A stretch of 64,000 nucleotides of DNA from a virus. Lineage: Duplodnaviria > Caudoviricetes. A model generated the notes under the pieces. That model made no database searches. It was not told the DNA's origin and saw only the letters and a list, made by a program, of their open reading frames with translations. Numbering within the stretch: position 1 is the stretch's first letter; each line of letters opens with the position of its first letter. The stretch covers positions 1-64,000 of IMG/VR virus record IMGVR_UViG_3300026121_000008; one strand, given 5' to 3'. Below are positions 12 through 21,264 of this stretch, in pieces. Both the position numbers and the translations under genes were made by a program.

Positions 12-3000
12 GTGGCCTATGACCCCGGTCAGGCACGAGATGCTCATGGGCGATGGACTGAGGCTGGACCACTGGTGGCCTACCACGGGACCGTGGAAAA
101 GCGGCTGGAGAGCATCCTTCGTGAAGGACTCACGAGAGCCCATGCGGGTGAGGCATGGAAAGCGTTCTCCCGGACAGATCGTGTGTATGTGACGACGAGT
201 GAACAGGATGGAAAAAATTGGGCCGAAAATTCAAAGCATCGGCATGAGGACATTGATGACTTGAGGCGAGAGGAACAACTCGCGACCGCTTCTCCCCTTG
301 ACATGCTTGCGGAGCGTCCGGAGCCTCGGGTGACGTCAGAAGTGGCGGTCCTGCTCACCGTGGAGATCCCAGCCTCCGAAGTAGGCAAGCTCGAAGAGGA
401 TCGCTATTTTCCGGGGGAAACAAAACGCACCTTTGATGGTGATATCAAACCGGAGTGGATTACCCGTGCTCAAGTACTCAAGGAAGGAGATCGAGTTGGG
501 GGTAATTGGGAGGATGTCCCTCTCCGGAAGAAAATCGCTAGAGACGGGACGACCATCTATATCGCGTTGTTGCTGAGTGACGACGAAGTCACCAAGTGGG
601 ACGAGCACCAACACCCCCGCGACAAAGAGGGTCAATTCACTGAAGCCGTGGCGGCAAAGGTCGCTGAGGCGGCAAAGGTGATCGCGGACGCCAAGACTGA
701 TGGCCGTCCGGTGTTGTTTCATTCAGGAGATGCCAGTATTGATGCCCATCTCGCCCAAGGTATCGAACCCCGCTTCGGGGGGTGGCTCGAAGAAGTGTTG
801 AGTGGCGCGACGGATGATGACGAGCTTGCGGATCAAATCCGTGAGCAAGACCCGGTCACGTTCTTTTCGACCGAGCCTGATTGGGTCGCCATGAAAGTGG
901 CGCGGGCGATGGGAAAGTTTGTGGGGGATGTCACGCTGGAGGACATCCGGACGCATGGGCAATTGAGCATCATTAGTGTCGCGGCCCGTGATCCGTCTGA
1001 ACGATTTACGGAAGCAGAGCAGGACGCCTTCACCGAGGAAGAGTGGAAACATCAAGAGCGTCTGACGGAGAAGGGTGCAGACCCGGATGATTTTCTCACC
1101 GTGGGCGGGAAGCACCACGAAGAGATCATTCCGCTGGGTGGCACGTCCCGAGGATTTGAGGAGATTCCGTTTGGCGTCGAGCCCAAGGACATCTTCTCGA
1201 AGAGCACTATTGTTCCAGATGTGACGTTGACCGGGGATGCACTGGTGGCGTTTCTGCAAATCCACTACCCCCATCTTCTAGCCCATGTGAAGAAGTGGGA
1301 TGAACAGAAACACCCCCGCGACAAAGAAGGGCAATTTGTAGAGGCGGCTGATACCGTTTTGACCAGTTCATATGATGGTTATCAGCACATGATCGAGATG
1401 AAGACACCGGACGGTCACCTTATCGGTCATGCGAAGCTCCGCATGACTTCTCGTGACTTGGCCGAGTACGACATTCTGCACATCGATCCAAAGTTCCGAG
1501 GCCATGGGTATGGAGAGCACCTTTATCGGGCCATCGCAGACAAAGCGAGAAGACTTGGCGCGAAAAGAATTCTGGGGGATGTAACGTCCGCAGGCGTATT
1601 ACGACTCGGCATTAAGGTGTTAGGGACACCGGAATTCATTGCCGATGCCATTGAGGAGTATACCCTTGAGCAGGCTCTGAAGAAATTGGAGCCACAGGCC
1701 CCCGAAAATGCCGAAGGTGTCATTGATACGGCCAACTATCTTGCTGTGCGCTGGCCGCTTCGGAAGCAAAAGTACGCTATCAAGTGGGACGAAGCTCGAC
1801 ATCCTAGAGACAAACAAGGCCAGTTCGCACACGGGGGTATCACCGAAGTAACCGGGGTGGATTGGGAATCCTTTTACTGGGGTAAAGATTTCAGAGAGCC
1901 TGACGATTACTACTACCACGTCACGTTAGCTCCACACGCTCAACGTATTGTGGAGAACCAAGAACTTACACCGGGTCGAGCGCAGTTTATGGGTCGAGCA
2001 GAACCAGCCGCCCATTCAAAAGGAAACGTCTTTCTGACGGATAGGAATGGAGTGTACTTTTGGGCCAGTCGTGTGCAGGACCATGCGATGGATCAGTACG
2101 ATGATCCCCCGAAGGTGGCTGTGGTTCGTATTCCAAAGCGTTTGGTCCCTGATGTCTCCCCTGACCCGGCAGGCACACGAGATGCGAACGCCCCCGCGTA
2201 TATTGTCAAGGGACCGTTGTCTTTGAAGTGGGATGAGCAAAAGCATCCCCGAGACAAGCAAGGCCAGTTCACCGAGTCCGGAGGGGATGTCGCGGCAGAA
2301 GAAGAAATCTGGCCCATCGAGGGGGGAGGACCAGAACGAAAGAAGTGGAACAAGCTCCTCGTGGTGGCGAAAGACGCCGATGCCGTAATAGAGGGTCTGG
2401 TCAATGCCCAAACGCAGTTGTATCTGCGTCTGAAAGAGAAGTATCAGGTTCACACCCCGGAGGGGTTAGCGGCGTATCTCAAAGATCCGGAATGGGTCGA
2501 GGCGGATGCCAAACGTGAGGCGGCTCAGAAAGTCGTGGATGCTGCCTATGAGGTACTGAATAAGCAAGCCCCCGCCATGCGGAAAGAAGTCGTGACGAAC
2601 CTCGCCGCAGATGTGGCGAAGCGACTCGGCATCGATCCCTCTGTCATCCATGTCGTAGACAAAGAGCCGCGTGAATTCTCCGTGGGAGACAAACAGTTCA
2701 AGGAAGGTGGGCACTACGATCCGCGAGATCTTCAAATTGAAATCAATGCCCGGAATATCGGCTACAACAATGCACCGGGCGTCAAAGGCGTGGTCGCCCA
2801 TGAAATCTCTCACCTCATCTACCATCAGTTGAAGAAAACGGCAGAACAGGAGTTCACTCGATACACGGATCTTGCTATCACCCCGGACGGACAAGGGTAT
2901 ACCGATTGGTACAAGGAACGGTTTGAAACCGTACCGGGATTGTTGTACCAGAAGCAGTTGAAATCTGAATATCGAGCCGAGTTTGCGAAGATGTTCCCCG

Positions 3001-3404
3001 CTTCCGCTGTCATCGCGGGACTCAGTGATGGAGATTTCTTCAAGGGCCTGTCCAATTTCATGATCAAAGAGAACGGGCACAGTGCCTATGCCAAGTCGTA
3101 TTGGGACGAGCAGGCGGTCAAGAACCGAGGGTATGAGCCTGCGGTGAACGAGACCATTGCTGAAGTGACCCGATTTTTAAGCTATCCCAAGTCGTGGCAA
3201 GAGGACCATCAGCCCGACATGCACTCCCCGTGGGTCATTCTGACCGGGAAGATGCACGCATGGTATCGGAAGAAGCAGGATCAGGCGCAGGCCGAGTTAG
3301 ACGCGAATTTGAAGGCCCTCAAAGAGCACCAGCGACAAGAGGCCATTCAAATGGAATTGGAAGCGGAACAAGAACGCCGCGCCCGTCGAGAGCACCACCC
3401 ATGA
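12..3404 (+). CDS. Polyvalent head-cargo polyprotein 1: ART / ART-like / GNAT / ART / zincin modules, each behind a tag (may extend 5' of the window)
   Basis: Five tags (YDPGQARDAHGRWT, then 4x KWDExxHPRDKxGQF). Modules: YHGT..ILREGL..VYVT..DIKPEWI (Tpt1/KptA-like ART); LFHSG..FFST (ART-like, tentative); IDPKFRGHGYG (GNAT motif A); YYHVT..VFLT..VVRIP (ART); HEISH..SAYA..NETIAE (zincin). The frame is open to the window edge. Confidence 0.8.
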   Translation: MAYDPGQARDAHGRWTEAGPLVAYHGTVEKRLESILREGLTRAHAGEAWKAFSRTDRVYVTTSEQDGKNWAENSKHRHEDIDDLRREEQLATASPLDMLAERPEPRVTSEVAVLLTVEIPASEVGKLEEDRYFPGETKRTFDGDIKPEWITRAQVLKEGDRVGGNWEDVPLRKKIARDGTTIYIALLLSDDEVTKWDEHQHPRDKEGQFTEAVAAKVAEAAKVIADAKTDGRPVLFHSGDASIDAHLAQGIEPRFGGWLEEVLSGATDDDELADQIREQDPVTFFSTEPDWVAMKVARAMGKFVGDVTLEDIRTHGQLSIISVAARDPSERFTEAEQDAFTEEEWKHQERLTEKGADPDDFLTVGGKHHEEIIPLGGTSRGFEEIPFGVEPKDIFSKSTIVPDVTLTGDALVAFLQIHYPHLLAHVKKWDEQKHPRDKEGQFVEAADTVLTSSYDGYQHMIEMKTPDGHLIGHAKLRMTSRDLAEYDILHIDPKFRGHGYGEHLYRAIADKARRLGAKRILGDVTSAGVLRLGIKVLGTPEFIADAIEEYTLEQALKKLEPQAPENAEGVIDTANYLAVRWPLRKQKYAIKWDEARHPRDKQGQFAHGGITEVTGVDWESFYWGKDFREPDDYYYHVTLAPHAQRIVENQELTPGRAQFMGRAEPAAHSKGNVFLTDRNGVYFWASRVQDHAMDQYDDPPKVAVVRIPKRLVPDVSPDPAGTRDANAPAYIVKGPLSLKWDEQKHPRDKQGQFTESGGDVAAEEEIWPIEGGGPERKKWNKLLVVAKDADAVIEGLVNAQTQLYLRLKEKYQVHTPEGLAAYLKDPEWVEADAKREAAQKVVDAAYEVLNKQAPAMRKEVVTNLAADVAKRLGIDPSVIHVVDKEPREFSVGDKQFKEGGHYDPRDLQIEINARNIGYNNAPGVKGVVAHEISHLIYHQLKKTAEQEFTRYTDLAITPDGQGYTDWYKERFETVPGLLYQKQLKSEYRAEFAKMFPASAVIAGLSDGDFFKGLSNFMIKENGHSAYAKSYWDEQAVKNRGYEPAVNETIAEVTRFLSYPKSWQEDHQPDMHSPWVILTGKMHAWYRKKQDQAQAELDANLKALKEHQRQEAIQMELEAEQERRARREHHP

Positions 3405-4750
3405 TCCCCACCCCTATCACCATCGAGGGCAAGACCGGCACCGTCGTCTATCTCGATGCCCTCTGGCACCCGGTCCCTCCTGAACGTGCCACCATGGCCC
3501 GTGTCCTTTTCGATGATGGGAGTTCGGCCTTCTTTTTTACGGAGCCCGACACTGTTGAGAAGTTCGACCCCGCCCAACCCCGTGATAAAGACGGGAAGTG
3601 GACACAAGGGTTGCATCTCCAAGGGCCGAAGAGCAAAAAACCAGAACGACTTTCGACGGCTGAGTTTGAGGCGCGGTATCCGGAAGAAAAACGGTTGTAT
3701 CTGGGGGTGACGTCTTCTGCTGCTGCAGAACGCGCCCGTGAAGGGGGCGGGAAAATTGGGGGCACGGGCATGCACATGCAGCAATCGGTGGTCCATGCCC
3801 AAGGTAATGCCCAGCGTGAAGCACGCGATCAAGGGAACGTGCTGCGGTTTGCCATCAAACCGGAAGCGCGGGTGGTGCGATTGCCCCATCGATTGTGGGA
3901 TGCCAGTCCAGAACGGATTGACAAGTGGGTCACAGAGCAGCATGCCGATATTGTGAACGTCGATGACGTGGAATTCATCGTGAAGAATCCAGCGATGGTA
4001 GCGGTCGATTCGCATGACTATACGCTTAGTGAAGCGGTCGTGCTGGATTACGAGCGGAGCGGCTACATACTCGATGAGTATGAAGCAGAGAAAGCGGCCC
4101 TCGCGGCATTACGACAGGCCACGATCCCGTCTTCGGTGCCGTCCCAGACAGACCTTCCTCCCTACCAACAGGCCCGAGCCCTGCTACAGGACGCTGTCGG
4201 GAAAGAGATTCCGGTGGGAGTGGATGATCATCCTGTCGCAATTCGCGCCGCACAGGAGATCGCAGAGGTACTGAAGGAGATGCAGGCCAAGGGCTATACG
4301 ATGCCTCGTGAGATCGAAGTCCGGGCGCAACAGACCCAGATGCCTGCGGGCGAAGCCACGCACGACATTTTGCAGATCAAAGTGCCGGATAACCTTCCCG
4401 ATGATGTCACCCTCGATCAGGCGACTCTGGCGGTCTACGGGGAGGTGGATTATGCCGGGGTTCCCAATTATGTCCCTCGTACGTTCAAGGAGATCGTGGT
4501 TCACGAGATGGGGCATATCAACCGCCGTCCCGCAAAGGTGAGAGAAACACCAGCGGCAGCGAAGGAATTTGCACGGGAACTAAAAGCGATTCACGAGATG
4601 CCCACTGCCGCGAAAGACGTGAGCCGCTATGCGGCACAGAATGCCGAAGAATTTGTGGCGGAGGTCTTCACCAAACTCTATCGCGGGGATACGGTCTCCC
4701 CCAAAGTCATGCGGGTGTATCGTGGGTTGCGGGGAGGAGTCCTCCGATGA
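3401..4750 (+). CDS. Head-cargo protein 2: short N-domain, tag, ART-like module, zincin metallopeptidase
   Basis: ATGA overlap with the upstream stop favours a start at 3401 over 3194. Tag EKFDPAQPRDKDGKWT; RLYLG..GTGMH..EFIVKNP (ART-like, tentative); HEMGH..SRYAAQNAEEFVAE (zincin). Confidence 0.75.
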   Translation: MIPTPITIEGKTGTVVYLDALWHPVPPERATMARVLFDDGSSAFFFTEPDTVEKFDPAQPRDKDGKWTQGLHLQGPKSKKPERLSTAEFEARYPEEKRLYLGVTSSAAAERAREGGGKIGGTGMHMQQSVVHAQGNAQREARDQGNVLRFAIKPEARVVRLPHRLWDASPERIDKWVTEQHADIVNVDDVEFIVKNPAMVAVDSHDYTLSEAVVLDYERSGYILDEYEAEKAALAALRQATIPSSVPSQTDLPPYQQARALLQDAVGKEIPVGVDDHPVAIRAAQEIAEVLKEMQAKGYTMPREIEVRAQQTQMPAGEATHDILQIKVPDNLPDDVTLDQATLAVYGEVDYAGVPNYVPRTFKEIVVHEMGHINRRPAKVRETPAAAKEFARELKAIHEMPTAAKDVSRYAAQNAEEFVAEVFTKLYRGDTVSPKVMRVYRGLRGGVLR

Positions 4751-7700
4751 GTCTTCCTCCATGGCCTGATTGGACGGCTGAGCAGTGGCGGGCTGTCGTG
4801 CAGCCAATTGCACGAGAAGGTGTCGGAGGTCTCACCCGGAAGTTCGATGCCACCCAACACCCCCGAGGAGAGGATGGCCGCTTCATTGAAGCTACCCAAC
4901 CCAGAATCTTCAGTCGAATGACTGATGTTGGCTCCTACATGAGTTGGGGCGAGAAGAAGTGGGGATGGCGTGCGACGGCTGAGGACATACGTTTTGGCGC
5001 GAAGTTGGGAGAAGTCACGGGGAGGCTCCTGACGGGTGAACCCATCCCCCGTGACCAGATCCCCGCGAAGCTCTATCACGTCACCACCAATGCTCCTGCC
5101 GTTGAATCCTCTGGTGTCCTCCTTGGCCTACTGGAAGATGGCGGGATGGGCGGAGGACAAGCCCAAGGCGTGTCGTTTACGTCCAGCCCGGAGGATGCCG
5201 AGGTTATTCAGCGGGAGTTGAAGCGGGCGGTTCATATTGCCCGAGGGGATGTGCAAGGCATCGAAGACTTTGAACGCTATGCCAGAGAAGATGAGCAACG
5301 GGCAGGGCTCCCGAAGGGATCACTGGATGCGGCGTTGACGGAAGTGCGACGAACGTGGGACGTCCAGAAGGATCGTCACAAGCAATATGAGGCCCCTGAC
5401 GAGCAGGAGCGGGTTCGACGCAGTAATCTGGGCGATCTCCTGAACCTCTACCTGTATGGCCGGGAAACGGCCTCAGAGAGAGTGACGGGATCACGAGTGG
5501 AGATTCTCAAGAATCCCATCCTGTTTGGCCAACAGAAACATCTGGCCAAGATCAACCCCGACCACATCCAGATTCTGGAAGCTGATGCCGAGGACATCCC
5601 CGCTGATGCCCTCGTCACCACCGGCTCCGATAAGTTCCTCCATGAGGTCCGAGTCTACGCGGACGTCCCGAGACGCCGGAAAAAGGCCGCATCTGAGACC
5701 GCCCATCCTACCCAGCCCCTTCCCAAAGTTGCCAAAGACGCCAATGCCTTTGATGAGACAAAGCACCCACGAGCCCCCGGAGGCACGGAAGAAGGCGGGC
5801 AATTCACGGAGACGGGACGGTCTGGTGTCCCGACCTCTGACCCTACGCTGGCGAAGCAGGCTAAAGACGGGATTGTGTACGTTGAACGGCTTCTCCCAGA
5901 GGCGGTAAAAACCGCCCGCTATGAAAATGTGTCGGGGACATGGGGGTACTTGACGAAAGAGACGCAGGAGGCCGTTGAACTCGCTTACAAAGAAAAGATT
6001 TACGAGAGCACGTCTCAGCACTTGTTCACCGCAGATTTTGATAATGATCTCAAGATTGCCTTAGCGAGGAAAGAACGAGACGCGATTCGGCAGGAAGGGT
6101 TGAAGCGGGTGAGAGCCCTCTACCCAGACGTCGATCCGACGACGGTGATGCTGAGTCCTGATGCCCCGAAAGAAGCGTCGGGCTACGTGCCGTTAGGGCA
6201 GAGTGAATTACGTCATACCGATGGGTCGCCGCTCAGTGCCAAAGAGTATCGAACTCTTGATCAAGCGTGGTTTCAATCGTTTAAGGATGCACGGGATGAC
6301 GTCTTTAGCCAATTCATGGCGTCCGAGGAATATGCGGCATTACGGGAGCAGCAGGTCAGAAAAACTGTTCACCAACAATGGCAGAATCTCCCCCCTGAAA
6401 CCAAGTACCAGAAGGCCATTGAGATGCGGCAACGAGGAGAGTTGTCGGGGGAGGGGCTTGAAATCCTTGCGAAGGAACCTGAGCACTGGACCACAGGGGT
6501 GGAGCAGGGTGACCACACGGACGAAGACTACGCCCGGACCCATGCGATAGCCCTGAAACTCACCGAACTCCGGATGGACGAGATCCGGAAAGAGCGGGAT
6601 ATTGGCGAGCCGAAGTCGGTGTATTCGATTCGGCCTGCTGCTGATCCAGACGATGGGTTCATAATCACAGACAGTAGTGATGGCACGACGGTGGCGACGG
6701 CGTTGACGCAGGAGGAAGCCTTCCAGCAAATGACGGAATGGCAGGAGCAGGAAAACACACTCCTCTCCTCCAAAGCGGTGATTGAGTCCGTCTGGGAGTC
6801 ATGGAAACGTAAATCCAGTGAGGGCTTGGGCCTGTCTCTGCAACTCGCCGCTGCCCGAGAATTGGGTGGGCACCATCGGATGTCGCCGGAGGAAGTTCAA
6901 GAGGCAGAAAAGCAGGCGAGGGAGCACTTCGGCCAGTATGGCATGGCTACCCTCCAAGCCTATGTGCGTGCCCAATGGGAAGTGACCCAGATGGTCATGC
7001 AGAAGGCGGGGGAGAAAGAGGTCTCCGTCTATCGTGGGCTGATGCTGAGCGGAGATCAGGTCAAGACGACCACGCATGAAGTCGTGGATGAGTCAGGAGC
7101 CTCACTCCGGCCCACGAATGTGAGAACGATCACGAAAACTCCTGCTGACGCAGATTATGTCGCGGGGGAGTACGTGAGTTTTGAGTATCGAGGACATGAG
7201 TTAACAGAGCCGAAAGTCCGCACGACGCCGTTTACATGGGAGGAAGTGGACGCCGCGACGAGAGAAAAAGTGGCCGAGGGGTGGGCTACGATGATCGGCA
7301 CAAAAGAAACCACCCCTGATCAAATCAAAGCGGCGTATGCCGTCCTGAATGATTGGAGCAAACTGCAACTCCTGCAGACGTTGATTACCCGAGGCATTAT
7401 TCCTCTCTATCCGTATGAGAGTGAAGAAGCCACGGTCCAGCGGGGGGTGAAACGGTATTTGGAAGAGATAGAGTACCAGAGCACCTTCACCAAACTTCCC
7501 AATCTCTCGTTGAAGCGAGCGGGTGCCCAATCCACCACCGGCACCCCCGCTATCGCTAATGACTGGGGAGGGGTCGGGGATCTTCCCCCCAACCCCGTGC
7601 GCGTGGTCATCCGGGTACAGGCCCCACCCACATCGGTGCTGTCCCTTCCCGTCTATGGGCAAAATGCTCAGAGTGAGCACGAGACCGTGCTCCTCGGTAC

Positions 7701-11396: not shown

Positions 11397-11397
11397 G

Positions 11398-11426
11398 TTG
11401 ACAAATCACACAGTGTGTACCATACT
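11398..11426 (+). promoter_or_regulatory. Sigma70-like promoter (TTGACA-17-CATACT)
   Basis: Consensus -35, 17-bp spacer containing the palindrome CACACAGTGTG, and an ATG 5 nt after the -10 (possibly a leaderless mRNA). Confidence 0.7.
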
Positions 11427-11431
11427 GTAGG

Positions 11432-11656
11432 ATGAGGTGTCAGGTGTATGTAGAATTCTGGACGAATACCAAGGGGAAGATGCGGGTGATCGCGGTCATT
11501 CGGGCAGACGGGCAGATCGAGGAGAAAGAACCCCTCCCGCCCCGGATCAGAGAGGACATTGAAGATCAGCGACGACGGGTGCCGGGAAAGAGATTTCTGG
11601 AGTCCCTCCCGGCGGAGTTCTCTGGTTCCTACTACTGGGCCATCCTGAAGGACTAA
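11432..11656 (+). CDS. Small hypothetical protein, candidate kinase immunity/antitoxin
   Basis: 74-aa ORF filling the gap after the kinase gene; has its own promoter and no cargo tag. Confidence 0.6.
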   Translation: MRCQVYVEFWTNTKGKMRVIAVIRADGQIEEKEPLPPRIREDIEDQRRRVPGKRFLESLPAEFSGSYYWAILKD

Positions 11657-11658
11657 CC

Positions 11659-12579
11659 GTGCTGACGATCCTCCCTAAGCCGGTGCAACCAGTTGCACCC
11701 TACCTGTCCGTCCTGAAGTTCAACCCGGACCAGCCCCGCCAACCCGCCGGGTCGGAGCATGGGGGAGAGTTTGCGAAAGAAACGAGCAATCCGACCCATG
11801 CACGACGGGACGAGGTGGAGCAGCTAGGAAAGGACATCTTCGAGGAGGCGCATCGTATCGCTCCCGGTCATGACCGCTCCACGACAGGGGGGTACTCGAT
11901 GTACCATCGGGCGGACGTGAAAGCCCACATCCAAGACGATTTGACGGCCCGCTTGAAGGGACATCCCGCTTTCGCGGATATGGATGAGGAGACGCTCTTG
12001 ACGTGGGTGCAGGGGAAGATCGACTTGTGGGCGGAGACCTCTGGAGACAGTGACCTCGATGCGGCGGTCATGCAGTTGGCGGTCCAACAGGAATTTGGGT
12101 TGACCGGTGCCGCCACAGACCATCTCCAAAAGAACTTGGGATTTCCCCTGACCCTGTCTGGAAAAGAGGCGGACCAGCTTCGCGCCTTCGTGCGGGCGGA
12201 GTACGAGGCCACACAGGCGTGGTTCAAGAAGCGAGGCATCACCCATGTGACGGCTCTCCGAGGCATGGATGATGATCCACGGGATAAGCGATTGGGGTTT
12301 GGGTATGAGACCATCACGATGCAACCCGCGTCGTCATGGGCGGTTGATGTCCAAACGGCGTTCGCGTTCACCACGAATAAATCGAACCCCAAGATTCTCA
12401 CGACCCGTGTCCCGGTAGAACAGGTCTTGAGTACGTGTCTGACCGGGCGGGGCTGTTTGGCAGAAAAAGAAATCCTGTTACTGGGGAAACCGCAACGCGC
12501 CCATATTTTTGGGGTGAGCGGGGACGATTTCTCTCCCGACAGTTCGGATACCAAACGAATCCTGCATTCACTCGAATGA
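11659..12579 (+). CDS. Head-cargo R-S-E ADP-ribosyltransferase
   Basis: Tag LKFNPDQPRQPAGSEHGGEF; TALRG..ASSW..AEKE. QLRAFVRAEYEATQ matches TLQAYVRAQWEVTQ of polyprotein 3. Confidence 0.75.
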   Translation: MLTILPKPVQPVAPYLSVLKFNPDQPRQPAGSEHGGEFAKETSNPTHARRDEVEQLGKDIFEEAHRIAPGHDRSTTGGYSMYHRADVKAHIQDDLTARLKGHPAFADMDEETLLTWVQGKIDLWAETSGDSDLDAAVMQLAVQQEFGLTGAATDHLQKNLGFPLTLSGKEADQLRAFVRAEYEATQAWFKKRGITHVTALRGMDDDPRDKRLGFGYETITMQPASSWAVDVQTAFAFTTNKSNPKILTTRVPVEQVLSTCLTGRGCLAEKEILLLGKPQRAHIFGVSGDDFSPDSSDTKRILHSLE

Positions 12580-15500
12580 ACATTGACGCCACGCTCACCA
12601 ACGCCGACTGGCCCAAGCGCACCCCCGATAAGTTCTCGGATCTGGGCGTCATCGTCCAGAAGTTCCAAGAGACCCAGCACCCCCGTGATACGCGAGGCCG
12701 CTTCACCGAGTCGGCCTCCATCACGGTGACAGGACGCCAGATCGAGGTGGTCAAGCCCGAACGGGCCATTCGTGCCGGGGATAAGCTCGTCCCCCTGAAT
12801 GTCCTCGCCTTCGATCAGGAGTTCCAGAAAGAGCCGGGATTCTATCTGGGAGTGGGGGGACAGGGCGGCATCGGCACCCGCTATACCCGCTTCGGAGAGT
12901 TTCTCTCCCAGCATGACAGCATCGAAGCCGCCGAGGTGTCGGTCCACTCGGATGGCCGGATTGGCTTCACCAACGGACGGCACCGGTATGCGTGGCTCCG
13001 GGATCAGGGGTTGACGTCCATCCCGGTGGCCATGACACCTGAGTCCGTCCGGAATGCCAAGAAATTTGGCTATCTTGCCGCCGTCAAGCTGGCATGGGAT
13101 GAGAGTGATCACCCCCGTGACAAAGAGGGGCAGTTCACGACCTTCTACCATGGCACGCTGCAGGAGCAATTGGACTCCATCAAAGAGCAGGGCTTGCAAA
13201 CTAACCGGTCAGGGCTGGCATGGCCGGGTCTGAGTCAACCGGGGACGATCTATCTGGGACGCACGAAAGAAGCGGCTATGGGGTGGGCGGAGTCCACGAC
13301 GCTCCGGCTGGAGTGGAAGTTTGAGAATCCCACAGCCGTGGTGCTGGAAGTGCGAGTGCCCGATGACGTGTTGGCCAAGTCCCAGCGAACCGCCGAGCCT
13401 GAAGGCAACCTGCGGGTCTTCCAAGATATTCCACCCGAGTGGATTGTGGGGGTGACTGTTGGGCGAAGCCATGATCAAATTCTTGGGGTGACGAGAGCCC
13501 GGATGCGACGGGAAGAAGCCAAGCATATTGTGCCTCCTGTCATTACCAAATCTGAGACGTTCTATGTAGGGCTGGTGATTGAAGGAGGGCGAGTTCAGAA
13601 ATGGGACGAATCCCAGCATCCGCGTGATGAAAAAGGCCAGTTCAGTGACGCCGGTAGGAGTGTCGGGGACTACGTTCACTCCTCAGAGCCGCTGACCACA
13701 GAAGAGGAAGATCGGTTCACGGAGTTCGAGGAGGCATGGGCCGGAGGCGTGGCGGACTTCGGGGATGCGATGGCCGCGACCTACGTCCAGCAACTCCCGA
13801 AATACAACGCCTACCGCACGAAGCTCGTGGCAGAGTTGGAGCAGAATTACGGCCCCAAGATCACCGTCTACCGGGCCGTCAGTCAGGAGGCCCTCGAAGA
13901 GATGGAAGCCGGAACATGGCAAGGCCCCATTGCCACGACCACCAATCCTGAACTGGCCAAGAAGTGGGTGAACTTCGCCCGGAACAAGAACACGACCCTC
14001 CATATCCTCAAGACCACCATCAGCCCCAAGCTAGCGGTGATCCGGGGCAAGGCCGAGGAGAGTGAGATCGTCATCGATGGGGATTGGGTCAGCTTCCATG
14101 AGTGGGAGCACGTCGGCACGGCGAAGAAACGTCAGTGGGAGGAATCCAAACATCCTCGTCAAGGCGGGGGTTCTTCCCATGGCGGCGAGTTCGTGGAGGC
14201 TCTCCACAGCCCCGGTGATGCCCTCTTCTCCCTCCTGAACAACGAGAACGCCACCATTGATCGAGGGGATGTCCGGACCCTCTTGGAGAAGGCGGCAGAG
14301 CTAGAGGACACAGAAGACCCGAACCTCCTGCACTTGCATGTGGATGGCATGGACGTCTTCGACAAGACGGGACTGGGGATCAAGCGGGAACACATGCCCC
14401 AGATCCCGAGAGCCCATCGCGCCCAGTTCATGAAGGAGATGAAAGACATTGGGGTGGAGATTGTCAAGGAGTGGGTAGACCCGCTCACCCTCAAACCTAC
14501 CCAAGATGAGATCTCCGCCCGCAATGCGGGGCAGAAGATGCGGGAGTACGAGAAGAAGAAGGACAAAGCCTTCCCACCCCTCCTCGTCTCGAAGGAAGGC
14601 CGTCTCCTCGATGGCCACCACCACTGGGCCATGATGGCAGGACTGGCGGTGGATGCGCCCGGTGTGAAAGTCCCGATCTACCGGCTCCGGATCAGCACGA
14701 AGCGGGCACTGGCCCTGATGCACGCCTACGACAAGAAATACAAGATAGAGCGGAAGGCACTGGGCCAGAAGTGGGATGAGTCCAGACATTCCCGCGATCA
14801 AGAGGGACAATTCACTGAGTCTGGTGCCCCACCCAAGCCAAGCAAGAGGGGGTATCATGACATTACGCCAGAGAGGCATAAGCGGTATCACGTCTACGAT
14901 GAGAACGATAACCTTGTCGATAAGACGTATGATTCTGATGAAGCCCAACGCTGGGCCGATCAGCGTAATGGCTATGTGGAGGATATAGGAGAGGAAAAAC
15001 CGAAGAAAAAAACTGCAAAGAAAGCCGATCCAGCCACTGGTCGTTACGTCACCCCCTTCGTGTCCTTCGAGAAGCAGGGAGATGAATCTCTCCGCATGAT
15101 CGCTAGCCTGAACTCCAGCCGCTTGGCCACATGGGGGTTCACGGCAGAAGCCGAAGTACTCGGCATGGCCCGGTACCGCTTGACGGCAGTCCTCGATGGA
15201 CGCACCAGCAATTTCTGTCGGATGGTGGATGGCAAAGTCTTCGAGGTCCAAGATGCCCGCCGGAAGGTGATCGAAGTCTTGAATGTCCAGAATCCGGAAG
15301 ACTTGAGAACAGTACAGCCGTGGCCCAAGCAGGACCGGGCGTCTATGGCGGAGTTTAGGCAGATGGACCCAGAGGAGTTGACGCAACTGGGCCTGCATAT
15401 CCCCCCTTACCATCCCCACTGTCGGACGCTGCTCCGGCATGTGCCGTCGAGTGTGGGAGAGCCCACCGAGCCTGTTCCGACGATTCCAGTAGAGGCCGAG

Positions 15501-16235
15501 GTGTTCCAGCCCGTGACGGCGGACGACCTGAGAGAACTCGGCGTCGAGGCGACTCCAGAGGATGTTGCCCTGTGGAACGCCCACATCGGGATGACCCCGG
15601 CGGAACTCCTCTCGAAGCTCTCCGGGATGCCACCCCAAGAGGTGATGACCAAGGGCAAAGGGGTCGGAGCCAATCCCATCAGGTTCGATGAGGCGGGCAA
15701 CATCGGGTTCAACGTCCGGGGAGCCACACCACAAGGGCTGGAGTTCAAGCTCAATGCTCTCCTCGATCCGTTCACCAGCACCTACTATCTGACTCAAGCG
15801 GACCTGATTGCAGGCAACCCCAAGGCGGAACTGGCCTTCCTGAAGAACCTGTTTGGCTCCCTGATTGAGATGGGGCTGAAGTCGTCTGCGACGTCCGTGG
15901 CCGTAGGTGTGGCCGGGAGCACGATCCCCTACGCCAAGATGGGGTTCCTCCCGGACGAGTTGGAGTGGGACAGCCTCCGCACGTATGCCTTGAATGAGAT
16001 CGACACGGGTGCCCTCAAACCCATCCTCGACTCGCTGGCTCCTGCGGACCAGCAGTTGGTGATTCACCTCCTCCAAGACCGATCTGTGGGCGCAATGTCG
16101 GCACTGGTGGAGTTGCCGTTCACGTATGAAGGGAAGACCATTGGGGAGTGGTTGTTCGGAGAGGCGACTGGAACGTGGGCCTTGGACTTGACGGATGATT
16201 TGATGGTGGCACAGGCCAAGGAGTATCTGACATGA
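12576..16235 (+). CDS. MuF (SPP1 gp7-like) head-morphogenesis polyprotein: ParB-N / ART / ART / ParB-N / small domain / MuF / GNAT-like C-terminus
   Basis: ATGA overlap start at 12576; five tags. TNGRHR and LDGHHH (ParB-N); FYHGT..DIPPEWI and VYRA..ATTT..EESE (ARTs); AVLDGRTSNFCR..PPYHPHCR (MuF); YAKMGF (GNAT-like, tentative). Confidence 0.85.
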   Translation: MNIDATLTNADWPKRTPDKFSDLGVIVQKFQETQHPRDTRGRFTESASITVTGRQIEVVKPERAIRAGDKLVPLNVLAFDQEFQKEPGFYLGVGGQGGIGTRYTRFGEFLSQHDSIEAAEVSVHSDGRIGFTNGRHRYAWLRDQGLTSIPVAMTPESVRNAKKFGYLAAVKLAWDESDHPRDKEGQFTTFYHGTLQEQLDSIKEQGLQTNRSGLAWPGLSQPGTIYLGRTKEAAMGWAESTTLRLEWKFENPTAVVLEVRVPDDVLAKSQRTAEPEGNLRVFQDIPPEWIVGVTVGRSHDQILGVTRARMRREEAKHIVPPVITKSETFYVGLVIEGGRVQKWDESQHPRDEKGQFSDAGRSVGDYVHSSEPLTTEEEDRFTEFEEAWAGGVADFGDAMAATYVQQLPKYNAYRTKLVAELEQNYGPKITVYRAVSQEALEEMEAGTWQGPIATTTNPELAKKWVNFARNKNTTLHILKTTISPKLAVIRGKAEESEIVIDGDWVSFHEWEHVGTAKKRQWEESKHPRQGGGSSHGGEFVEALHSPGDALFSLLNNENATIDRGDVRTLLEKAAELEDTEDPNLLHLHVDGMDVFDKTGLGIKREHMPQIPRAHRAQFMKEMKDIGVEIVKEWVDPLTLKPTQDEISARNAGQKMREYEKKKDKAFPPLLVSKEGRLLDGHHHWAMMAGLAVDAPGVKVPIYRLRISTKRALALMHAYDKKYKIERKALGQKWDESRHSRDQEGQFTESGAPPKPSKRGYHDITPERHKRYHVYDENDNLVDKTYDSDEAQRWADQRNGYVEDIGEEKPKKKTAKKADPATGRYVTPFVSFEKQGDESLRMIASLNSSRLATWGFTAEAEVLGMARYRLTAVLDGRTSNFCRMVDGKVFEVQDARRKVIEVLNVQNPEDLRTVQPWPKQDRASMAEFRQMDPEELTQLGLHIPPYHPHCRTLLRHVPSSVGEPTEPVPTIPVEAEVFQPVTADDLRELGVEATPEDVALWNAHIGMTPAELLSKLSGMPPQEVMTKGKGVGANPIRFDEAGNIGFNVRGATPQGLEFKLNALLDPFTSTYYLTQADLIAGNPKAELAFLKNLFGSLIEMGLKSSATSVAVGVAGSTIPYAKMGFLPDELEWDSLRTYALNEIDTGALKPILDSLAPADQQLVIHLLQDRSVGAMSALVELPFTYEGKTIGEWLFGEATGTWALDLTDDLMVAQAKEYLT

Positions 16236-16411
16236 AGATCGTGACCAAACCGATCCGTCTGATTGATCGGCCCAACCTCCCCCTGAATGCGTTTGAAACG
16301 CTCGTGGCCGCACATAAACCGCAGGCCAAGACACGGGCCTATCAGCAACTGGTCACCTCGCAGGGCGTCCATCCTGACCGGGCTATGGCGTTACTGGGCC
16401 TGAGAAAATAG
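16232..16411 (+). CDS. 59-aa hypothetical protein (not in ORF track)
   Basis: ATGA overlap with the MuF gene stop; MKIVTKPIRL...LLGLRK. Confidence 0.55.
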   Translation: MKIVTKPIRLIDRPNLPLNAFETLVAAHKPQAKTRAYQQLVTSQGVHPDRAMALLGLRK

Positions 16412-16440
16412 TTGTTGCGTTTCGGACACTCCTGTAAAAT
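16412..16440 (+). promoter_or_regulatory. Possible sigma70-like promoter (TTGTTG-17-TAAAAT)
   Basis: AT-richer intergenic stretch upstream of 16479. Confidence 0.35.
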
Positions 16441-16478
16441 AGGCCGCACGTCTGCACTCGGTTGCACTGGAGAGTCTG

Positions 16479-16976
16479 ATGCCCCTGCATATGTCCTCGG
16501 TGGTGTCTCGTCGCAAGCTCGACCATCCGCATGAGAAAACGCCGGTCAAGATCATGCCTCCTGACTTCGTCCGTGTCCTGAAGTACAACCCGAACCATGG
16601 CCCGGATGGACGATTTTCGTCAGGACGTGGGGGCGGGGGTGGGGGCACAAGCTCTTATAGTGGGGCGAAGTTTTCTGTGCCTGCGGGGTGGCCGCAACCG
16701 GGACGAGGGAGGAGTGTCGAAGCTCGCGCTTTCGGAGCCGTGCCGATGCCCGTTCATGAGAACCCCTACGCGAAGTCAGGACCGGGAGCCGTGCGGATGC
16801 CCACGTACGAAGGTGTCGCCAAGCCCGGAGCTAAAGGGCCGGTGCCGATGCCCGATCATTCGACGGGGGTCTACAAACCTGCCGTGAATCCCGCGAAACT
16901 CAGCCTGCGACAGGATTACCGAGAGTATAGAGAGCCCCGGAGCTTTGCGACTCGTGGCACCTCCTTCGCGGGGTAA
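16479..16976 (+). CDS. Tagged low-complexity head-cargo protein
   Basis: Tag VLKYNPNHGPDGRF, a Gly run, then three G[AP]V[PR]MP repeats. Confidence 0.6.
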   Translation: MPLHMSSVVSRRKLDHPHEKTPVKIMPPDFVRVLKYNPNHGPDGRFSSGRGGGGGGTSSYSGAKFSVPAGWPQPGRGRSVEARAFGAVPMPVHENPYAKSGPGAVRMPTYEGVAKPGAKGPVPMPDHSTGVYKPAVNPAKLSLRQDYREYREPRSFATRGTSFAG

Positions 16977-16982
16977 CTGCTG

Positions 16983-17273
16983 ATGCCGCTGACTTCTGGT
17001 CTGACCACCCGCCGATTGATTGCGAAAGGCGAAGGCCACATCCATTCGGACAAGTGGCATCGGTGCATCGAGCACGTCAAAGCCAAGGGCAGTGGCGTTG
17101 ATCCCTATGCGGTCTGTACCTTCAGTATCGGCTATAACGAATCGGTGAACCCTGAACACCAGACGCCCGGTCCTCACTCGTCCCGAGATACCCGGCGGTT
17201 CAAGCGGCGCAAGGAACGCCAAGAGGCAGAGAAGCACGATCTCTCCTACGCCGACATTTTGAAGTTTACGTAA
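16983..17273 (+). CDS. Small hypothetical protein with a two-Cys motif
   Basis: KWHRCIEHVK..PYAVC; shares the MPLTxGxTTR leader with the next gene. Confidence 0.6.
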   Translation: MPLTSGLTTRRLIAKGEGHIHSDKWHRCIEHVKAKGSGVDPYAVCTFSIGYNESVNPEHQTPGPHSSRDTRRFKRRKERQEAEKHDLSYADILKFT

Positions 17274-17276
17274 CCC

Positions 17277-18275
17277 ATGCCGCTCACCGAGGGGTTCACC
17301 ACCCGTCAAAAAATGTGCATGGGGCCTCCCAAACAGGGGCATCTGGAGAAAAAGAAGAAGAAACTGAAGACACCGTCGTATGCAGTGGCGTTGAAGTTCA
17401 ACAAGAATCATGATCCTGAATCGGGTCGATTTTCTTCCGGTGGGGGAGGCACGTCTACCAAGGACACCGATTTGGACGAGTTCACGTCTGAATCCCTGTC
17501 TCCCGCCCAGCGCACCATGCAGGCCGAGTTAGCCAAGCAGGCCAAGAAGCCGGTCTACAAGGTCAAGACGATTGAAGAAGCCGTGGTCCGAGTGCTCAAA
17601 GGGGATAACGTCGAACTGCAGGACACGAAAGCCGTGCATACCGTGCTCCAAAAGTTAGGCGAGATGGCCATCAAAGCGAAGCAGTTGAACAAGAAGGCCC
17701 CGAATTTCGACCCCTGTACGATCACGGTGAAGGGGACCAGCCTCTTTTGCTCACAAAAAATCAAGACGGATGAGTTTCCTCATGGCATCCCCCGGATTGA
17801 GATGCCGCAGTTCAAGTCCAAGAACCCGATACCGGGCAGCGAAGCGGACAAGCTCCCCCGAGACGACAACGATGAAGTCGATGCGACGGGGAAGTTTCTG
17901 GAACATCTGGCCGAGTCTGGCGTCAAGAGCAATCCCAACGCCACGATCCTCGCCCGAAAACTGAAAGCGAGTCAAGCCGAGATGGAAGGGGCCAAAGTCG
18001 CGGGCATGATGCTCTCGAACCGTGACCCGAAGAAAGCCAAGATCACGGTGTCCCGAGACGGCTATGTGGTCGATGGCCACCATACGTGGGCCGCAGCCGT
18101 AGGACGGGATGCCGAAGACGGCAACCTCGACAATGATATGGAAATGGACGTGGTGATGGTCGATCTACCCATGTCCCAGATTTACCATCTCTCCGTCGCG
18201 TGGACCAAGAAATATGGGTTGCCTGCCGCGAGTGTGAAAAAGTTTGATTGGGTTTCCATGCTAACGTTCGCGTAG
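17277..18275 (+). CDS. Tagged ParB-N-like head-cargo protein
   Basis: Tag ALKFNKNHDPESGRF; GIPRIEMPQ..LKASQ..VSRDGYVVDGHHTW, paralogous to the module at 14.2-14.75 kb. Confidence 0.7.
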   Translation: MPLTEGFTTRQKMCMGPPKQGHLEKKKKKLKTPSYAVALKFNKNHDPESGRFSSGGGGTSTKDTDLDEFTSESLSPAQRTMQAELAKQAKKPVYKVKTIEEAVVRVLKGDNVELQDTKAVHTVLQKLGEMAIKAKQLNKKAPNFDPCTITVKGTSLFCSQKIKTDEFPHGIPRIEMPQFKSKNPIPGSEADKLPRDDNDEVDATGKFLEHLAESGVKSNPNATILARKLKASQAEMEGAKVAGMMLSNRDPKKAKITVSRDGYVVDGHHTWAAAVGRDAEDGNLDNDMEMDVVMVDLPMSQIYHLSVAWTKKYGLPAASVKKFDWVSMLTFA

Positions 18276-18295: not shown

Positions 18296-18556
18296 ATGAC
18301 CGACGCTACCACGCCGTCACCGAGCAACCCGACCACCCCGAGCACGCCGAGTACTCCGAGTACGCCGGGAGGAACGCCCCATCCCGATCAGGATCTACCG
18401 GGGAGCCGTCCGGGCACCGGGCGTCCGGGCCAGCCGGGAGTCGAACCTCATCCGGATCGTCCGGGACAGGGTCTGCCGGGTCAGCCCAGCCGTCCGGGTG
18501 CGCCCCATCCCGATCAGGATCTACCGGGGAGCAAGCCGGGACAGCCAAAGCGGTAG
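18296..18556 (+). CDS. Pro/Gly-rich small protein
   Basis: AAGGAG RBS before ATG 18296; TPS and PHPDQDLPGS repeats. Confidence 0.6.
   Translation: MTDATTPSPSNPTTPSTPSTPSTPGGTPHPDQDLPGSRPGTGRPGQPGVEPHPDRPGQGLPGQPSRPGAPHPDQDLPGSKPGQPKR
18375..18532 (+). repeat. Perfect 32-bp direct repeat (18375-18406, 18501-18532)
   Basis: CGCCCCATCCCGATCAGGATCTACCGGGGAGC occurs twice, in frame. Confidence 0.9.
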
Positions 18557-18574: not shown

Positions 18575-19162
18575 ATGCAGAAGAAGCTCGTCATCAAGCA
18601 AGAAGGCGAACTCCAGATTGTCCTTGGGGAAGTTTATTCGCCTATGCGTCCAGACGCCCAAGGGGAATACATGACCGCCCCTGAAATTCGGAAGATGGCC
18701 CATGAATTCATCCGGAATGGCAAGATGGGCCAGATTGACCTCATGCACGGGAACAAGATTGTGTCGGGCGCGAGTGTCGTGGAATCCTTCGTCGCGGACG
18801 AAATCGATACCCGCTTCCTCCCCGGCTCGTGGGTGATTGGGGTGCATATCCCCGACCCGGTCCTCTGGTCTGCCATCAAGAAGGGCGAGATCAATGGCTT
18901 CAGCATGGAAGCCTTGGTGACCCGCCATGACATGGACGTCGAGGTAGAGATTCCCCCCATCGTGACTGGGTTGACCAGCAAGCATGAGGAACACCAACAC
19001 AAGTTCTTCGTCGCCTACGATGAAAAAGGCCAGTTCAAAGGGGGCGTGACCGACGTGGTCAACGGGCACTCTCACCAGATCGTGGCCGGGACGCACACCG
19101 AAGATGCCAAAGGCCACCGGCACCGGTTTTCTTCAGTTGATAACGTGCAGATTCTGGGGTAG
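18575..19162 (+). CDS. XkdF-like prohead serine protease with His-rich tail
   Basis: GEVYSP..DAQGE..IRKMAHEF..IDLMH..VESF..GSW..IKKGEINGFSME; located just upstream of scaffold and capsid genes. Confidence 0.8.
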   Translation: MQKKLVIKQEGELQIVLGEVYSPMRPDAQGEYMTAPEIRKMAHEFIRNGKMGQIDLMHGNKIVSGASVVESFVADEIDTRFLPGSWVIGVHIPDPVLWSAIKKGEINGFSMEALVTRHDMDVEVEIPPIVTGLTSKHEEHQHKFFVAYDEKGQFKGGVTDVVNGHSHQIVAGTHTEDAKGHRHRFSSVDNVQILG

Positions 19163-19167
19163 AGTGC

Positions 19168-20289
19168 ATGGCGAAAATTCGAGCCAAGTTGAAGCAATTG
19201 CGGGATGCCGATGTCCGGTACATATCGCTCGTGGATCGAGCGGCCACGCGCATCCCTTTTCGAGTCTTGAAACGTGACAAGGAGAACAAGATGGGCATTG
19301 ATCTGACGAAGGTGTTCAAGTCGGACGACAGCACCGTGAAGCCCTCCGTCTCGGCCTTGGTGGTGTTTGCCCATCCTGACGAGACGGTGACGACGTCCAT
19401 CCGAGACGCCATCCAGCAGGCAGGCTTCGCCGTGGACCGGGTCCAGAAGTCGGACGAAGGCGAAACCGTGGTGTACGCCCAAGGCACGCAAAAGGGTGAG
19501 ACCACGGTGGTACGTCTGAGTGACCAGATGCTGGTGTCGGTCGTCGGGCTGAAGACCCCGGACGGCTGGGCGGGAGAGATGGTCGAGCATCTCGGCTTCT
19601 ATCCTGACCTGAAGACGGCCACCTCCACCCTGCAGGACCAGATGCAATTGGTTGCCAAGTCGGAGACGCCGCAAGAGGACGCCACCGCCGTGCTGACCAG
19701 CTATGCTTCGTATCTGGACCAACTCCTCATCCTGCCTTCGGCGTGCTTCAAGGCCGACGAGGCGGTGAGCGCGATCATCAAGAAGTGCTCGTGCGAGGAG
19801 CAGGACGACAAGGACGACGACAAAGAAGAAGCCGAAAAGGGCGAGAAGAAGGCCAAGAATCCAGCGGCTGAAGCCATCAAGGAAGAGACCGAGGCCGACA
19901 AGAAGAAGCGGGCCAAGAACCACCCCCCCGCCGAGATGGCTCCTCCGGACGAGGACGACGACCAGAAGCCGCCCCCAGATGAAGCACAGAAGGCCGATTT
20001 CGAGGGCATGATGACTGCCCTGAAGGGCATGGAAGCACGGACGACCGCCCAACTGACGGCTCTGAGTCAGAAGCTGGAGACCGTGGCCAGCGAACAGGCG
20101 ACTCACAAGAAAACGCTTGACGGCGTCGTGGAGAAGGCCGACACTTTCGAGAACACCTTGAAGGCCACCGTGACGGCAGTGCCCACCGCAGAAGATCGCC
20201 CGTCTGGCGTGGTCCGGATGCGCGTCCAGAAGGACGACGATCCGCGCACCGGGAATTTCGACACCGCATTCTTGCGGAGACGCAAGTAA
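19168..20289 (+). CDS. Putative capsid scaffolding protein
   Basis: ISLVDRAA..F N-terminal motif, acidic/coiled-coil body; lies between protease and capsid genes. Confidence 0.65.
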   Translation: MAKIRAKLKQLRDADVRYISLVDRAATRIPFRVLKRDKENKMGIDLTKVFKSDDSTVKPSVSALVVFAHPDETVTTSIRDAIQQAGFAVDRVQKSDEGETVVYAQGTQKGETTVVRLSDQMLVSVVGLKTPDGWAGEMVEHLGFYPDLKTATSTLQDQMQLVAKSETPQEDATAVLTSYASYLDQLLILPSACFKADEAVSAIIKKCSCEEQDDKDDDKEEAEKGEKKAKNPAAEAIKEETEADKKKRAKNHPPAEMAPPDEDDDQKPPPDEAQKADFEGMMTALKGMEARTTAQLTALSQKLETVASEQATHKKTLDGVVEKADTFENTLKATVTAVPTAEDRPSGVVRMRVQKDDDPRTGNFDTAFLRRRK

Positions 20290-20319
20290 GGCCATCACCA
20301 TCGTTTTTGAGGAGACGAC

Positions 20320-21264
20320 ATGACGAATCAGGAAGTAATCATCTCAAAGGCCGACCTTGCGCTGTCGGATCTGGAAACCGCAGGCAAGCTCAACCCCGAA
20401 CAGACGGATCGGTTCATCCGCACGCTGATCGATCAGCCGACCCTGCTGGCGTCCGTTCGCACCGTCGCCATGGGCGCACCGCAGATGAAGATCAACAAGA
20501 TCGGCTTCGGGTCGCGCATCCTGCACCCCGCCGTCAGTGCCACCCCGCTGCCCGAGAACCTCCGCGCCAAGCCCGACCTCGGACAGGTGCAGTTGGAGAC
20601 GCACGAAGTCATCGCGGAAGTGAACCTGCCCTACGATGTCATCGAAGACAACATCGAGAAGGGCAACGTCAACGTGCCGCTCCAGACCGGAGCCGGGGGC
20701 TTGCATCAGACCATCGTGGACCTGATCGCGGAACGCGCCGCCCTCGACCTCGAAGAACTGGCGATTCAGGGTGATACGACCAACGTCGCGGACCCCTACC
20801 TCGCCCTGAACGACGGCTACCTGAAGCAGGCGACGGCCAACGTGGTCAACGTCGGTGGTGCCTTCGACAAGGCCGCAGTCAAGCAGGCCCTGAAGACCAT
20901 GCCCACCCGCTACCTGCGGAATCGTGCGGCCATGTCGCACTTCGTCTCCATCGACAACGAGACGGAGATCCGCGACCAGTACGGCGCACGGCAGACGGCT
21001 CTTGGTGACGCGCAAGTGCAGGGGCTCCTTCCGGTGTACGTCTACGGAAGCCGGGTAACCCCGGTCGCCCTCATGCCGGGAACGCAGGGTCTGTTCACCG
21101 ACCCGATGAACCTGATCTTCGGCATCCAGCGCAACATCATGATCGAGTACACGAAGGACATTCGCGCTCGTGTGTTCATCATCGTGCTGACCTGCCGCGT
21201 GGACTTCGCCATAGAAGAAGCGAACGCAGTCGTAAAATACACCGGGATTACCGGTAGCCGGTAG
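20320..21264 (+). CDS. Major capsid protein (HK97 fold, XkdG-like)
   Basis: GKLNPEQTDRFI..EDNIE..DLEELAIQGD..DGYLK..TDPMNLIFG; strong codon bias; GAGGAG RBS. Confidence 0.85.
   Translation: MTNQEVIISKADLALSDLETAGKLNPEQTDRFIRTLIDQPTLLASVRTVAMGAPQMKINKIGFGSRILHPAVSATPLPENLRAKPDLGQVQLETHEVIAEVNLPYDVIEDNIEKGNVNVPLQTGAGGLHQTIVDLIAERAALDLEELAIQGDTTNVADPYLALNDGYLKQATANVVNVGGAFDKAAVKQALKTMPTRYLRNRAAMSHFVSIDNETEIRDQYGARQTALGDAQVQGLLPVYVYGSRVTPVALMPGTQGLFTDPMNLIFGIQRNIMIEYTKDIRARVFIIVLTCRVDFAIEEANAVVKYTGITGSR

Follow-up and report, generated by a model that had tools for sequence, protein, structure and literature searches.

A probable lysine cut site of an XkdF-type prohead protease in phage scaffold and capsid proteins and, more tentatively, beside repeated cargo tags

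The stretch of DNA analysed here (the window) is the first 64,000 nucleotides of IMG/VR virus record IMGVR_UViG_3300026121_000008, a phage genome of 111,942 bp in a single contig, and it holds the head module of that phage. The module lies on the + strand and begins with nine tagged cargo proteins or polyproteins (3..18275), which are followed by an XkdF-type prohead serine protease of 195 residues (18575..19162; PF14550), a scaffold protein of 373 residues (19168..20289) and a major capsid protein of 314 residues (20320..21264). The order protease, scaffold, XkdG-like capsid protein is the same in Summit, psiM2 and the tag-bearing IMG/VR records G001 and G017. Among named phages the nearest are Summit, DLP5 and DLP3, Delepquintavirus phages of Stenotrophomonas, with 70% identity in the capsid protein (Summit and DLP5) and about 55% in the protease. 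A short hydrophobic-x-Lys motif (h-x-K) recurs along the scaffold, stands at the N-terminus of the capsid protein and lies beside a tag that is repeated through the cargo, and it probably marks where the head-maturation protease cuts.

The gene at 18575 had been called an XkdF-type protease in an earlier sequence-only reading of this DNA, and this assignment is borne out by a match to PF14550 (Peptidase_S78_2/XkdF) over residues 4–114 at 80.7 bits (cut-off 24) and E 1.2e-22. Of 27 aligned homologues, including those of psiM2 and PhiCh1, 26 keep His58 and all keep Ser110. PDB sequence searches with the protease and the capsid protein returned no match. Lys8 of the protease (18596–18598) stands at the start of the domain within a conserved h-x-K-[QKST]-[EAD], present in free-standing and polyprotein-embedded XkdF forms alike, and is itself kept in 23/27 homologues; the motif may mark an autocleavage boundary, or merely the first strand.

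The scaffold contains all eight motif strings listed in the sequence-only reading, with proposed sites after K51, K94, K109 and K164 (Lys codons starting at 19318, 19447, 19492 and 19657) and after K195, K275, K323 and K355 (19750, 19990, 20134 and 20230), all on the + strand. With chance expectation taken from shuffles within each protein, the loose form K.[DEN] was observed 15 times against 7.3 expected (z 3.3), [VIAL].K.[DEN] nine times against 2.1 (z 5.0) and V.K[SAGD][DE] five times against 0.15 (z 12); the Arg and Glu versions of the motif showed no enrichment. All 25 distinct scaffold homologues from IMG/VR relatives at 30–70% identity are enriched in [VIAL].K.[DEN], the full-length ones holding 7–14 copies where about 2 are expected, and their sites correspond in position (VFKSD, VQKSD, V.KSE, CFKLD, VVQKADT, RMRVQKDDD). 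In an unbiased count of the residues flanking 403 Lys from 11 scaffolds, with the Lys taken as P1, the favoured residues were Val (2.1x) or Ala (1.6x) at P3, Gln (2.9x) at P2, Ser (1.7x) or Ala (1.4x) at P1' and Asp/Glu (2.4x) at P2', for a consensus of [VA]-Q-K-[SA]-[DE].

The scaffolds of four distant XkdF phages (G001, G009, G013 and G017) can be aligned to that of the window solely at an N-terminal VD.PA..F.L.K. They are enriched in [VIALM].K[small], with z values of 2.4, 2.8, 5.5 and 4.3, respectively, and the Arg/Glu equivalents are again not enriched; neither is K.[DE], which counts against writing the site as K-x-[D/E]. What the family shares is thus h-x-K↓small (the arrow marks the proposed cut), the acid at P2' being lineage-specific. 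Across the other 112 open reading frames (ORFs) of the genome K.[DEN] is not enriched (203 observed, 201 expected, z 0.1), so that the loose K-x-[D/E/N] rule is not general to head proteins, and the motif is better written as h-x-K↓x with a lineage-specific P2' acid. The preferred site of the XkdF protease is probably a hydrophobic or small residue at P3, any residue at P2, Lys at P1 and a small residue at P1', to which this lineage has probably added the acid at P2' to give [VA]-Q-K↓[SA]-[DE].

Scaffolds are charged, repetitive and helical, and the position of the motif is conserved, as expected of a binding repeat. These points would suit a structural or capsid-binding repeat that is no cut site and resembles the tag junctions by coincidence. 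Such a repeat is nevertheless very unlikely: the enrichment is specific to Lys, with Arg and Glu not enriched; P3, P2, P1' and P2' each have defined preferences; the motif recurs in otherwise unalignable scaffolds that lie beside XkdF proteases; and prohead proteases, where present, normally degrade the scaffold at multiple sites (PMC10052503).

In the capsid protein the proposed site is ISK10↓ADL (Lys codon 20347–20349, + strand), as the sequence-only reading had noted. The N-terminal pattern ..I-x-K↓AD[LMI]AL.DL is kept in relatives, with Arg in place of Lys at 47% identity, and K/R-A-D is conserved among them; the capsid N-terminal region of G001 and G017 reads WLEK↓AT. Lys-specific cleavage of both the scaffold and the capsid protein by the XkdF protease is likely.

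The cargo proteins lie at 3–3404, ~3401–4750, 4747–9744, 9741–11396, 11659–12579, 12576–16235, 16479–16976, 16983–17273 and 17277–18275 (+ strand), with matches to GNAT, PI3/4-kinase-like, MuF and PFIN domains. A regular-expression scan combined with reading by eye located 18 tags in them that fit h-x-K-[WFY]-[DN]-x(2-4)-[HQ]PR-x(2-9)-G-x-[FW], and the description given in the sequence-only reading holds for every one: Lys directly precedes the aromatic residue (position -1) in 14/18, and is found at -3 to -5 in the other four. The 14 junctions, all on the + strand, are VTK↓WD (588..602), VKK↓WD (1287..1301), AIK↓WD (1776..1790), SLK↓WD (2220..2234), VEK↓FD (3554..3568), TRK↓FD (4834..4848), VTK↓FD (7876..7890), ILK↓YD in a kinase-like protein (9819..9833), VLK↓FN (11710..11724), VQK↓FQ (12654..12668), VQK↓WD (13593..13607), GQK↓WD (14763..14777), VLK↓YN in ORF 16479–16976 (16575..16589) and ALK↓FN in the ParB-like ORF 17277–18275 (17388..17402). 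The variant junctions, also on the + strand, are LPK-VA-Y with Lys at -3 (9..20), whose K-V-A variant occurs in proteins P0029, P0056, P0057 and P0073 too; VAK-DANA-F with Lys at -5 (5734..5751); AVK-LA-W with Lys at -3 (13086..13097), which recurs in relatives as VK[LHK]A-W; and AKK-RQ-W with Lys at -3 and -4 (14124..14138). A preference for V/A-Q-K is common to the tag junctions and the scaffold sites. Downstream of the window tags there is no consistent cut-type site.

Over the whole of the cargo K.[DEN] is depleted (53 observed, 70 expected, z -2.3; shuffles). Enrichment of the site, which the sequence-only reading had anticipated for head proteins, is therefore found in the scaffold, is nil in the 112 other ORFs and gives way to depletion in the cargo. 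The four cargo linker sites of that reading (nt 7789, 9613, 13548 and 15021) are all present; sites of the linker type [VIAL].K[SAGD][DE] number six in the cargo against 4.7 expected (z 0.6), which is chance level, so that the four examples carry no statistical weight. When the tags of the window cargo are masked, K.[DE] is observed 31 times against 55 expected (z -3.8), and all controls, namely 17 alternative spacings and motifs that were reversed or built on Arg, lie within z +/-2.3. This site avoidance in the window cargo is suggestive only. It was rejected as a general signature: K-x-[DE] is mildly depleted in every class of a set of 141 polyproteins, with K.[DE] ratios of 0.92 for Lys(-1) types, 0.93 for Lys(-2/-3) and 0.80 for Lys-free types, so that the depletion is strongest where Lys is missing and is not diagnostic. 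The ratio in the upstream regions of relatives is 0.88, against 0.86 for an Arg control.

K-x-[DEN] is very loose and lies at or below expectation in the cargo, and chance, with six linker-type sites against 4.7, still holds for the four cargo linkers. Chance or amino-acid composition as an explanation of the whole pattern is hardly credible, however: the shuffles reject it for the scaffold, where z values are 5–12 and the enrichment is seen again in 25 relatives and in four distant lineages, and the Lys does not vary among the junctions of this lineage.

One junction could be viewed in a structural model. AlphaFold2 prediction of ORF 17277 with 60 homologues (mean pLDDT 81) placed a folded domain from about residue 72 onwards, and residues 1–70, which comprise the leader, the K40 junction, the tag and a Gly-rich linker, had pLDDT values of 42–65 and no regular structure, falling below 50 at residues 31–41. 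The ALK↓FN junction at K40, the one junction modelled, is thus predicted to lie in an exposed, unstructured leader. In close orthologues of this ORF (60–74% identity) the leader and [AVT]LK↓ are constant, while the tag core is either FNPNHD..GRF or WDES.HPR..GGEF. In more distant ParB-like cargo proteins (P0190–P0195, P0205, P0213, P0216 and P0218; locus L185), which form a clade of their own, the residues immediately before the tag are L-[RHT]-E↓ instead; the contig piece of this clade carries no head genes, and no IMG/VR relative of it was found. The consecutive ORFs 16479, 16983 and 17277 all start with MPL[HT]..[GS]..(T/S)(R/K)R-like leaders, and the leader MPLTEGF.SRKMC.GPPKQGHLEKRKKK is kept in the orthologues of ORF 17277.

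The tag itself is far more widespread than this lineage. A profile built from 17 tags and searched against 1.84 billion proteins (E <= 0.001) matched 1683 representative proteins, among them the polyproteins P0002 (5313 aa, 17 matched tag stretches) and P0003 (7334 aa, 21). These two are metagenomic, and their 16 and 17 aligned junctions are mostly of the Lys-free type FS.D-WDE.KHPRGEHG. A short-peptide tblastn search against named phages gave one weak match, and the HPR tag is not described in the open-access literature that was searched. Among 680 tags in 149 other proteins the aromatic residue is invariant and is followed by Asp in 72%; the residue before it (-1) is Lys in 41%, Ala in 17%, Asp in 12% and Glu in 11%, and Lys occupies -2 in 20%. 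The 3–5 residues before the tag are the same within one protein and different between proteins, and the junction types include h-x-K↓, h-K-[ADE]-, V-x-K-[AS]-[DE]-, FS.D-, TAAA-, LSLA-, Y[ADE]- and QEA-. The C-terminus of the scaffold (20218–20286) reads K-x-[DE]-DPR-x-G-x-FDTA[FY][LI]RRR after the last VQK site and is strongly conserved in all relatives. This segment (VQK-DDDPRTGNFDTAF..) is tag-like by eye (D..PR..G.F); it is unscored by the tag profile and was not retained as a tag mimic.

A tie between the tag and the XkdF protease did not hold up. The search for PF14550 covered 63 tag-bearing IMG/VR records, with matches over the cut-off in G001, G009, G013 and G017 and weak matches in G010, G015, G016, G049 and G056. 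PF14550 is absent from twelve complete or near-complete tag-bearing genomes; counted by the curated cut-off, complete genomes that carry the tag and lack XkdF number at least 12, with G010 and G015 giving weak matches; and S77 and S78 are both absent from the five XkdF-less tagged genomes that were searched for them; the tag is therefore independent of XkdF. In all six XkdF-linked cases, a small sample uncorrected for phylogeny, a Lys site lies upstream of the tags at a distance of -1 to -9: at -1 in the window and G013, at -2/-3 in G017 (VAK-E-F, VYK-A-F) and P0140 (VEK-AE-W, MQK-SE-W), and constantly at -9 in G001 ([ST]K↓[SA][DEL].[RW][VI].D[AV]E-W) and G009. The complete XkdF-less genomes have Lys within 3 residues upstream of the tag in ~3/12, with Lys-type junctions in G019, G036 and G053, and often have an acid at -1. 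The variable distance between Lys and tag speaks for a Lys site distinct from the tag core. On this comparison, the Lys site is a lineage-specific addition placed beside the tag, and the core ([WFY]-D-x-x-HPR-x-x-G-x-F) is a separate, far wider element whose role is perhaps packaging or targeting. In G005, a complete genome with no XkdF, S77 or S78, no ORF with a repeated junction-like motif was found, which is consistent with an absence of processing in that phage and is uninformative about co-variation.

In other phages XkdF is itself a module within a tagged polyprotein and not a free-standing gene. The module is flanked by tags in G013 (L174) and is C-terminal in G001 (L166, 14675–17023), G017 (L178) and P0140, the last being the sole XkdF-module carrier among 150 listed proteins; P0224 and P0226 are also listed with XkdF embedded in a tagged polyprotein.

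That the same protease also cuts the cargo polyproteins at the tag junctions seems to us to fall slightly short of an even chance, and the explanation as a whole, by which the XkdF protease would cut scaffold, capsid protein and cargo at h-x-K beside a tag that is a separate element, appears evenly balanced. Part of the sequence-only interpretation stands, namely the identity of the protease, the scaffold motif, the capsid K/R and the upstream Lys in the six XkdF cases; what falls away is a tie of the tag to XkdF, and Lys at -1 amounts to only 41%. The common K-x-[D/E/N] site likewise survives as scaffold enrichment and as Lys at the tag junctions, but not as a loose rule nor in the cargo linkers, which are at chance level. 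Several results weigh against cargo cutting, among them the K.[DE] ratios of the polyproteins and upstream regions, the low share of Lys at -1, the tagged genomes in which XkdF, or S77 and S78, are absent, and the size of the XkdF sample. The open-access literature that was searched contains no cleavage data or specificity for any XkdF-type protease. P1' is a bulky aromatic residue in the tags and Ser/Ala in the scaffolds, and the acid at P2' of the tags is no evidence of a cut site, since it is the tag's own conserved Asp, present in 72% across lineages. Finally, whole tags are homogenised within each polyprotein, downstream residues included, so that uniform junctions alone are no proof of a protease site and could be explained by concerted evolution.

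Several of these points would be accommodated if the scaffold and capsid protein were cut after Lys and the polyproteins were packaged whole, the Lys before the tag being part of an extended, lineage-specific tag epitope or an inheritance homogenised by recombination. The homogenisation along the whole length of the tags in each protein, the difference at P1', the tag's own Asp and the Lys-type junctions of the XkdF-less complete genomes G019, G036 and G053 all fit, and there is a precedent in the virion RNA polymerase of phage N4, a giant polyvalent protein that is packaged uncut (PMC5512222). We nonetheless consider whole packaging unlikely, if more plausible than the other alternatives. The distance from Lys to the tag core varies from -1 to -9 in XkdF phages, Lys-free tags function in other lineages, the junction of ORF 17277 orthologues stays constant while the tag core changes type, and the V/A-Q-K preference is common to the scaffold sites.

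The polyproteins might also be processed by zincin-like metallopeptidase modules of their own, before packaging or after injection, with XkdF acting on scaffold and capsid protein only. The window does encode two HExxH modules, HEISH in the first polyprotein (~2830), with weak matches to SprT-like, M78 and Zn_peptidase_2, and HEMGH in the second (~4500), with a weak match to the ATLF zincin family; these too count against cutting by XkdF, and a zincin is part of the model for polyvalent proteins of Iyer et al. 2017 (PMC5512222). All of the zincin matches lie below the Pfam cut-offs, however, and self-processing of this kind would leave unexplained both the h-x-K common to junctions and scaffold sites and the presence of XkdF as a tagged module in other polyproteins. 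We regard it as improbable.

If the XkdF protease does cut at h-x-K, it would chop the scaffold at ~8–10 sites during prohead maturation and trim ~10 residues off the capsid protein at ISK↓ADL. It would further cut the cargo polyproteins at h-x-K, 0–5 residues upstream of each tag, and would thereby remove short N-terminal leaders and release modules that start with or just before the tag. A wider and rather doubtful extension is that the cargo is a plug-and-play polyprotein, in which each module carries the universal HPR-type tag together with an adjacent site matched to the head protease of the phage; that site may be Lys in XkdF phages, and elsewhere may be another residue or absent. Were this so, up to ~18 enzymes would be separated from one another by XkdF within the prohead (other phages have up to 21 tags), much as RNA viruses use polyproteins, with the protease itself a tagged module in some phages.

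XkdF head proteases are widespread, being found in Bacillus PBSX and in Vibrio, Pseudomonas, Streptomyces and archaeal phages, and the scaffold statistics supply a concrete, testable consensus for them, h-x-K↓small, which here takes the form [VA]-Q-K↓[SA]-[DE]. Cutting at the tag junctions as well would explain how giant polyvalent proteins become individual injected enzymes, and would be a different answer from the published metallopeptidase proposal. Trypsin-based virion proteomics is blind to neo-termini at Lys, and earlier studies would have overlooked processing of this kind. The site would also offer a handle for loading chosen proteins into laboratory phage capsids.

Further features of the locus concern the origin of the cargo array and its neighbours. 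When the end of the contig is joined to its start, the first cargo frame stays open and extends upstream, as it should in a circularly permuted or closed genome; the first polyprotein runs on from the contig end, where it adjoins the presumed portal gene. Summit has a single MuF-ParB gene with no HPR tags between portal and protease, which makes the cargo array here an expansion of ~16 kb. Across the contig junction (genome end 111.5–111.9 kb plus window 3–3404), the start of the first polyprotein, DLDMTEVGTENREW, resembles the N-terminal part of the Summit MuF-ParB protein, DIDLTEVGTKNKAA, and the MuF core matching Summit residues 100–233 lies ~15 kb downstream in another polyprotein (window 15000–15450); the cargo expansion apparently broke up an ancestral MuF gene. 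Between its protease and scaffold genes, Summit, whose MuF-ParB protein is untagged, has an ORF of 56 aa (L001 3846–4016) with a tag-like VQK-ANPYRGAGGKF. Upstream of the window protease, a Pro/Gly-rich ORF of 102 aa (18248–18556) with PGQP.. and HPDQDLPGS repeats overlaps the end of ORF 17277, and may be no real gene. Downstream of the capsid gene, an ORF at 22483–23274 matches CBM_5_12 at 26.6 bits (cut-off 26.2), and its product may decorate the head or lie at the virion surface.

The proposed arrangement is best compared with phage T4, in which gp21 and the capsid-targeting sequences of IPI–III and Alt provide a system where one head protease cuts scaffold core, capsid N-terminus and cargo at a shared consensus, and where a short targeting peptide stands beside the cut site of the cargo. 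T4 gp21, an S77 protease, has Glu as its P1 residue (L/I-x-E). T4 differs in that its cargo proteins are separate and each has one N-terminal targeting peptide, which is removed. Here the protease is of the XkdF type, the proposed P1 residue is Lys, and the T4 layout is not found: a polyprotein of the window holds up to 5 or more tags, which lie within the chain, have the Lys site on the N-terminal flank and would be retained on the released module.

The proteases phiKZ gp175 and SPN3US gp245 are likewise comparable in having many substrates, including ejection proteins, and in cutting propeptides at multiple copies of a motif, with Val at P4 and Ser at P1' in the cleavage logo (PMC10052503). 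They differ from the present proposal in being Glu-specific proteases of giant myoviruses, whose substrates are single proteins with long N-terminal propeptides and not multi-enzyme polyproteins. HK97 gp4 (Peptidase_S78) has the assemblin-like serine protease fold, as does XkdF (PF14550), the two falling in different Pfam families of the same clan. The premise of the sequence-only reading that HK97-type proteases can cut after Lys is sound, as HK97 gp5 is matured after Lys103 (FNK↓SLGSD), its delta domain being removed by gp4; HK97 differs in that it makes its scaffold as a part of the capsid protein and has no known cargo.

The closest likeness in the cargo itself is to the polyvalent proteins of Iyer, Burroughs, Anand, de Souza and Aravind (2017), multi-enzyme polypeptides of phages and conjugative elements, encoded beside MuF and portal genes and presumed to be packaged and injected (PMC5512222). 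The cargo of the window likewise combines several unrelated effector domains per polypeptide, near MuF and the presumed portal gene. The same work predicts proteolytic processing by zincin-like metallopeptidase or assemblin-like modules and, in the text that was searched, speaks of neither a repeated HPR tag nor a linker or conserved motif (PMC5512222); here, by contrast, a defined Lys site is proposed, with the prohead protease as the enzyme that would cut it. Cargo processing by XkdF at Lys sites, as we infer it, is a variation on the prohead-protease processing known from T4 and phiKZ.

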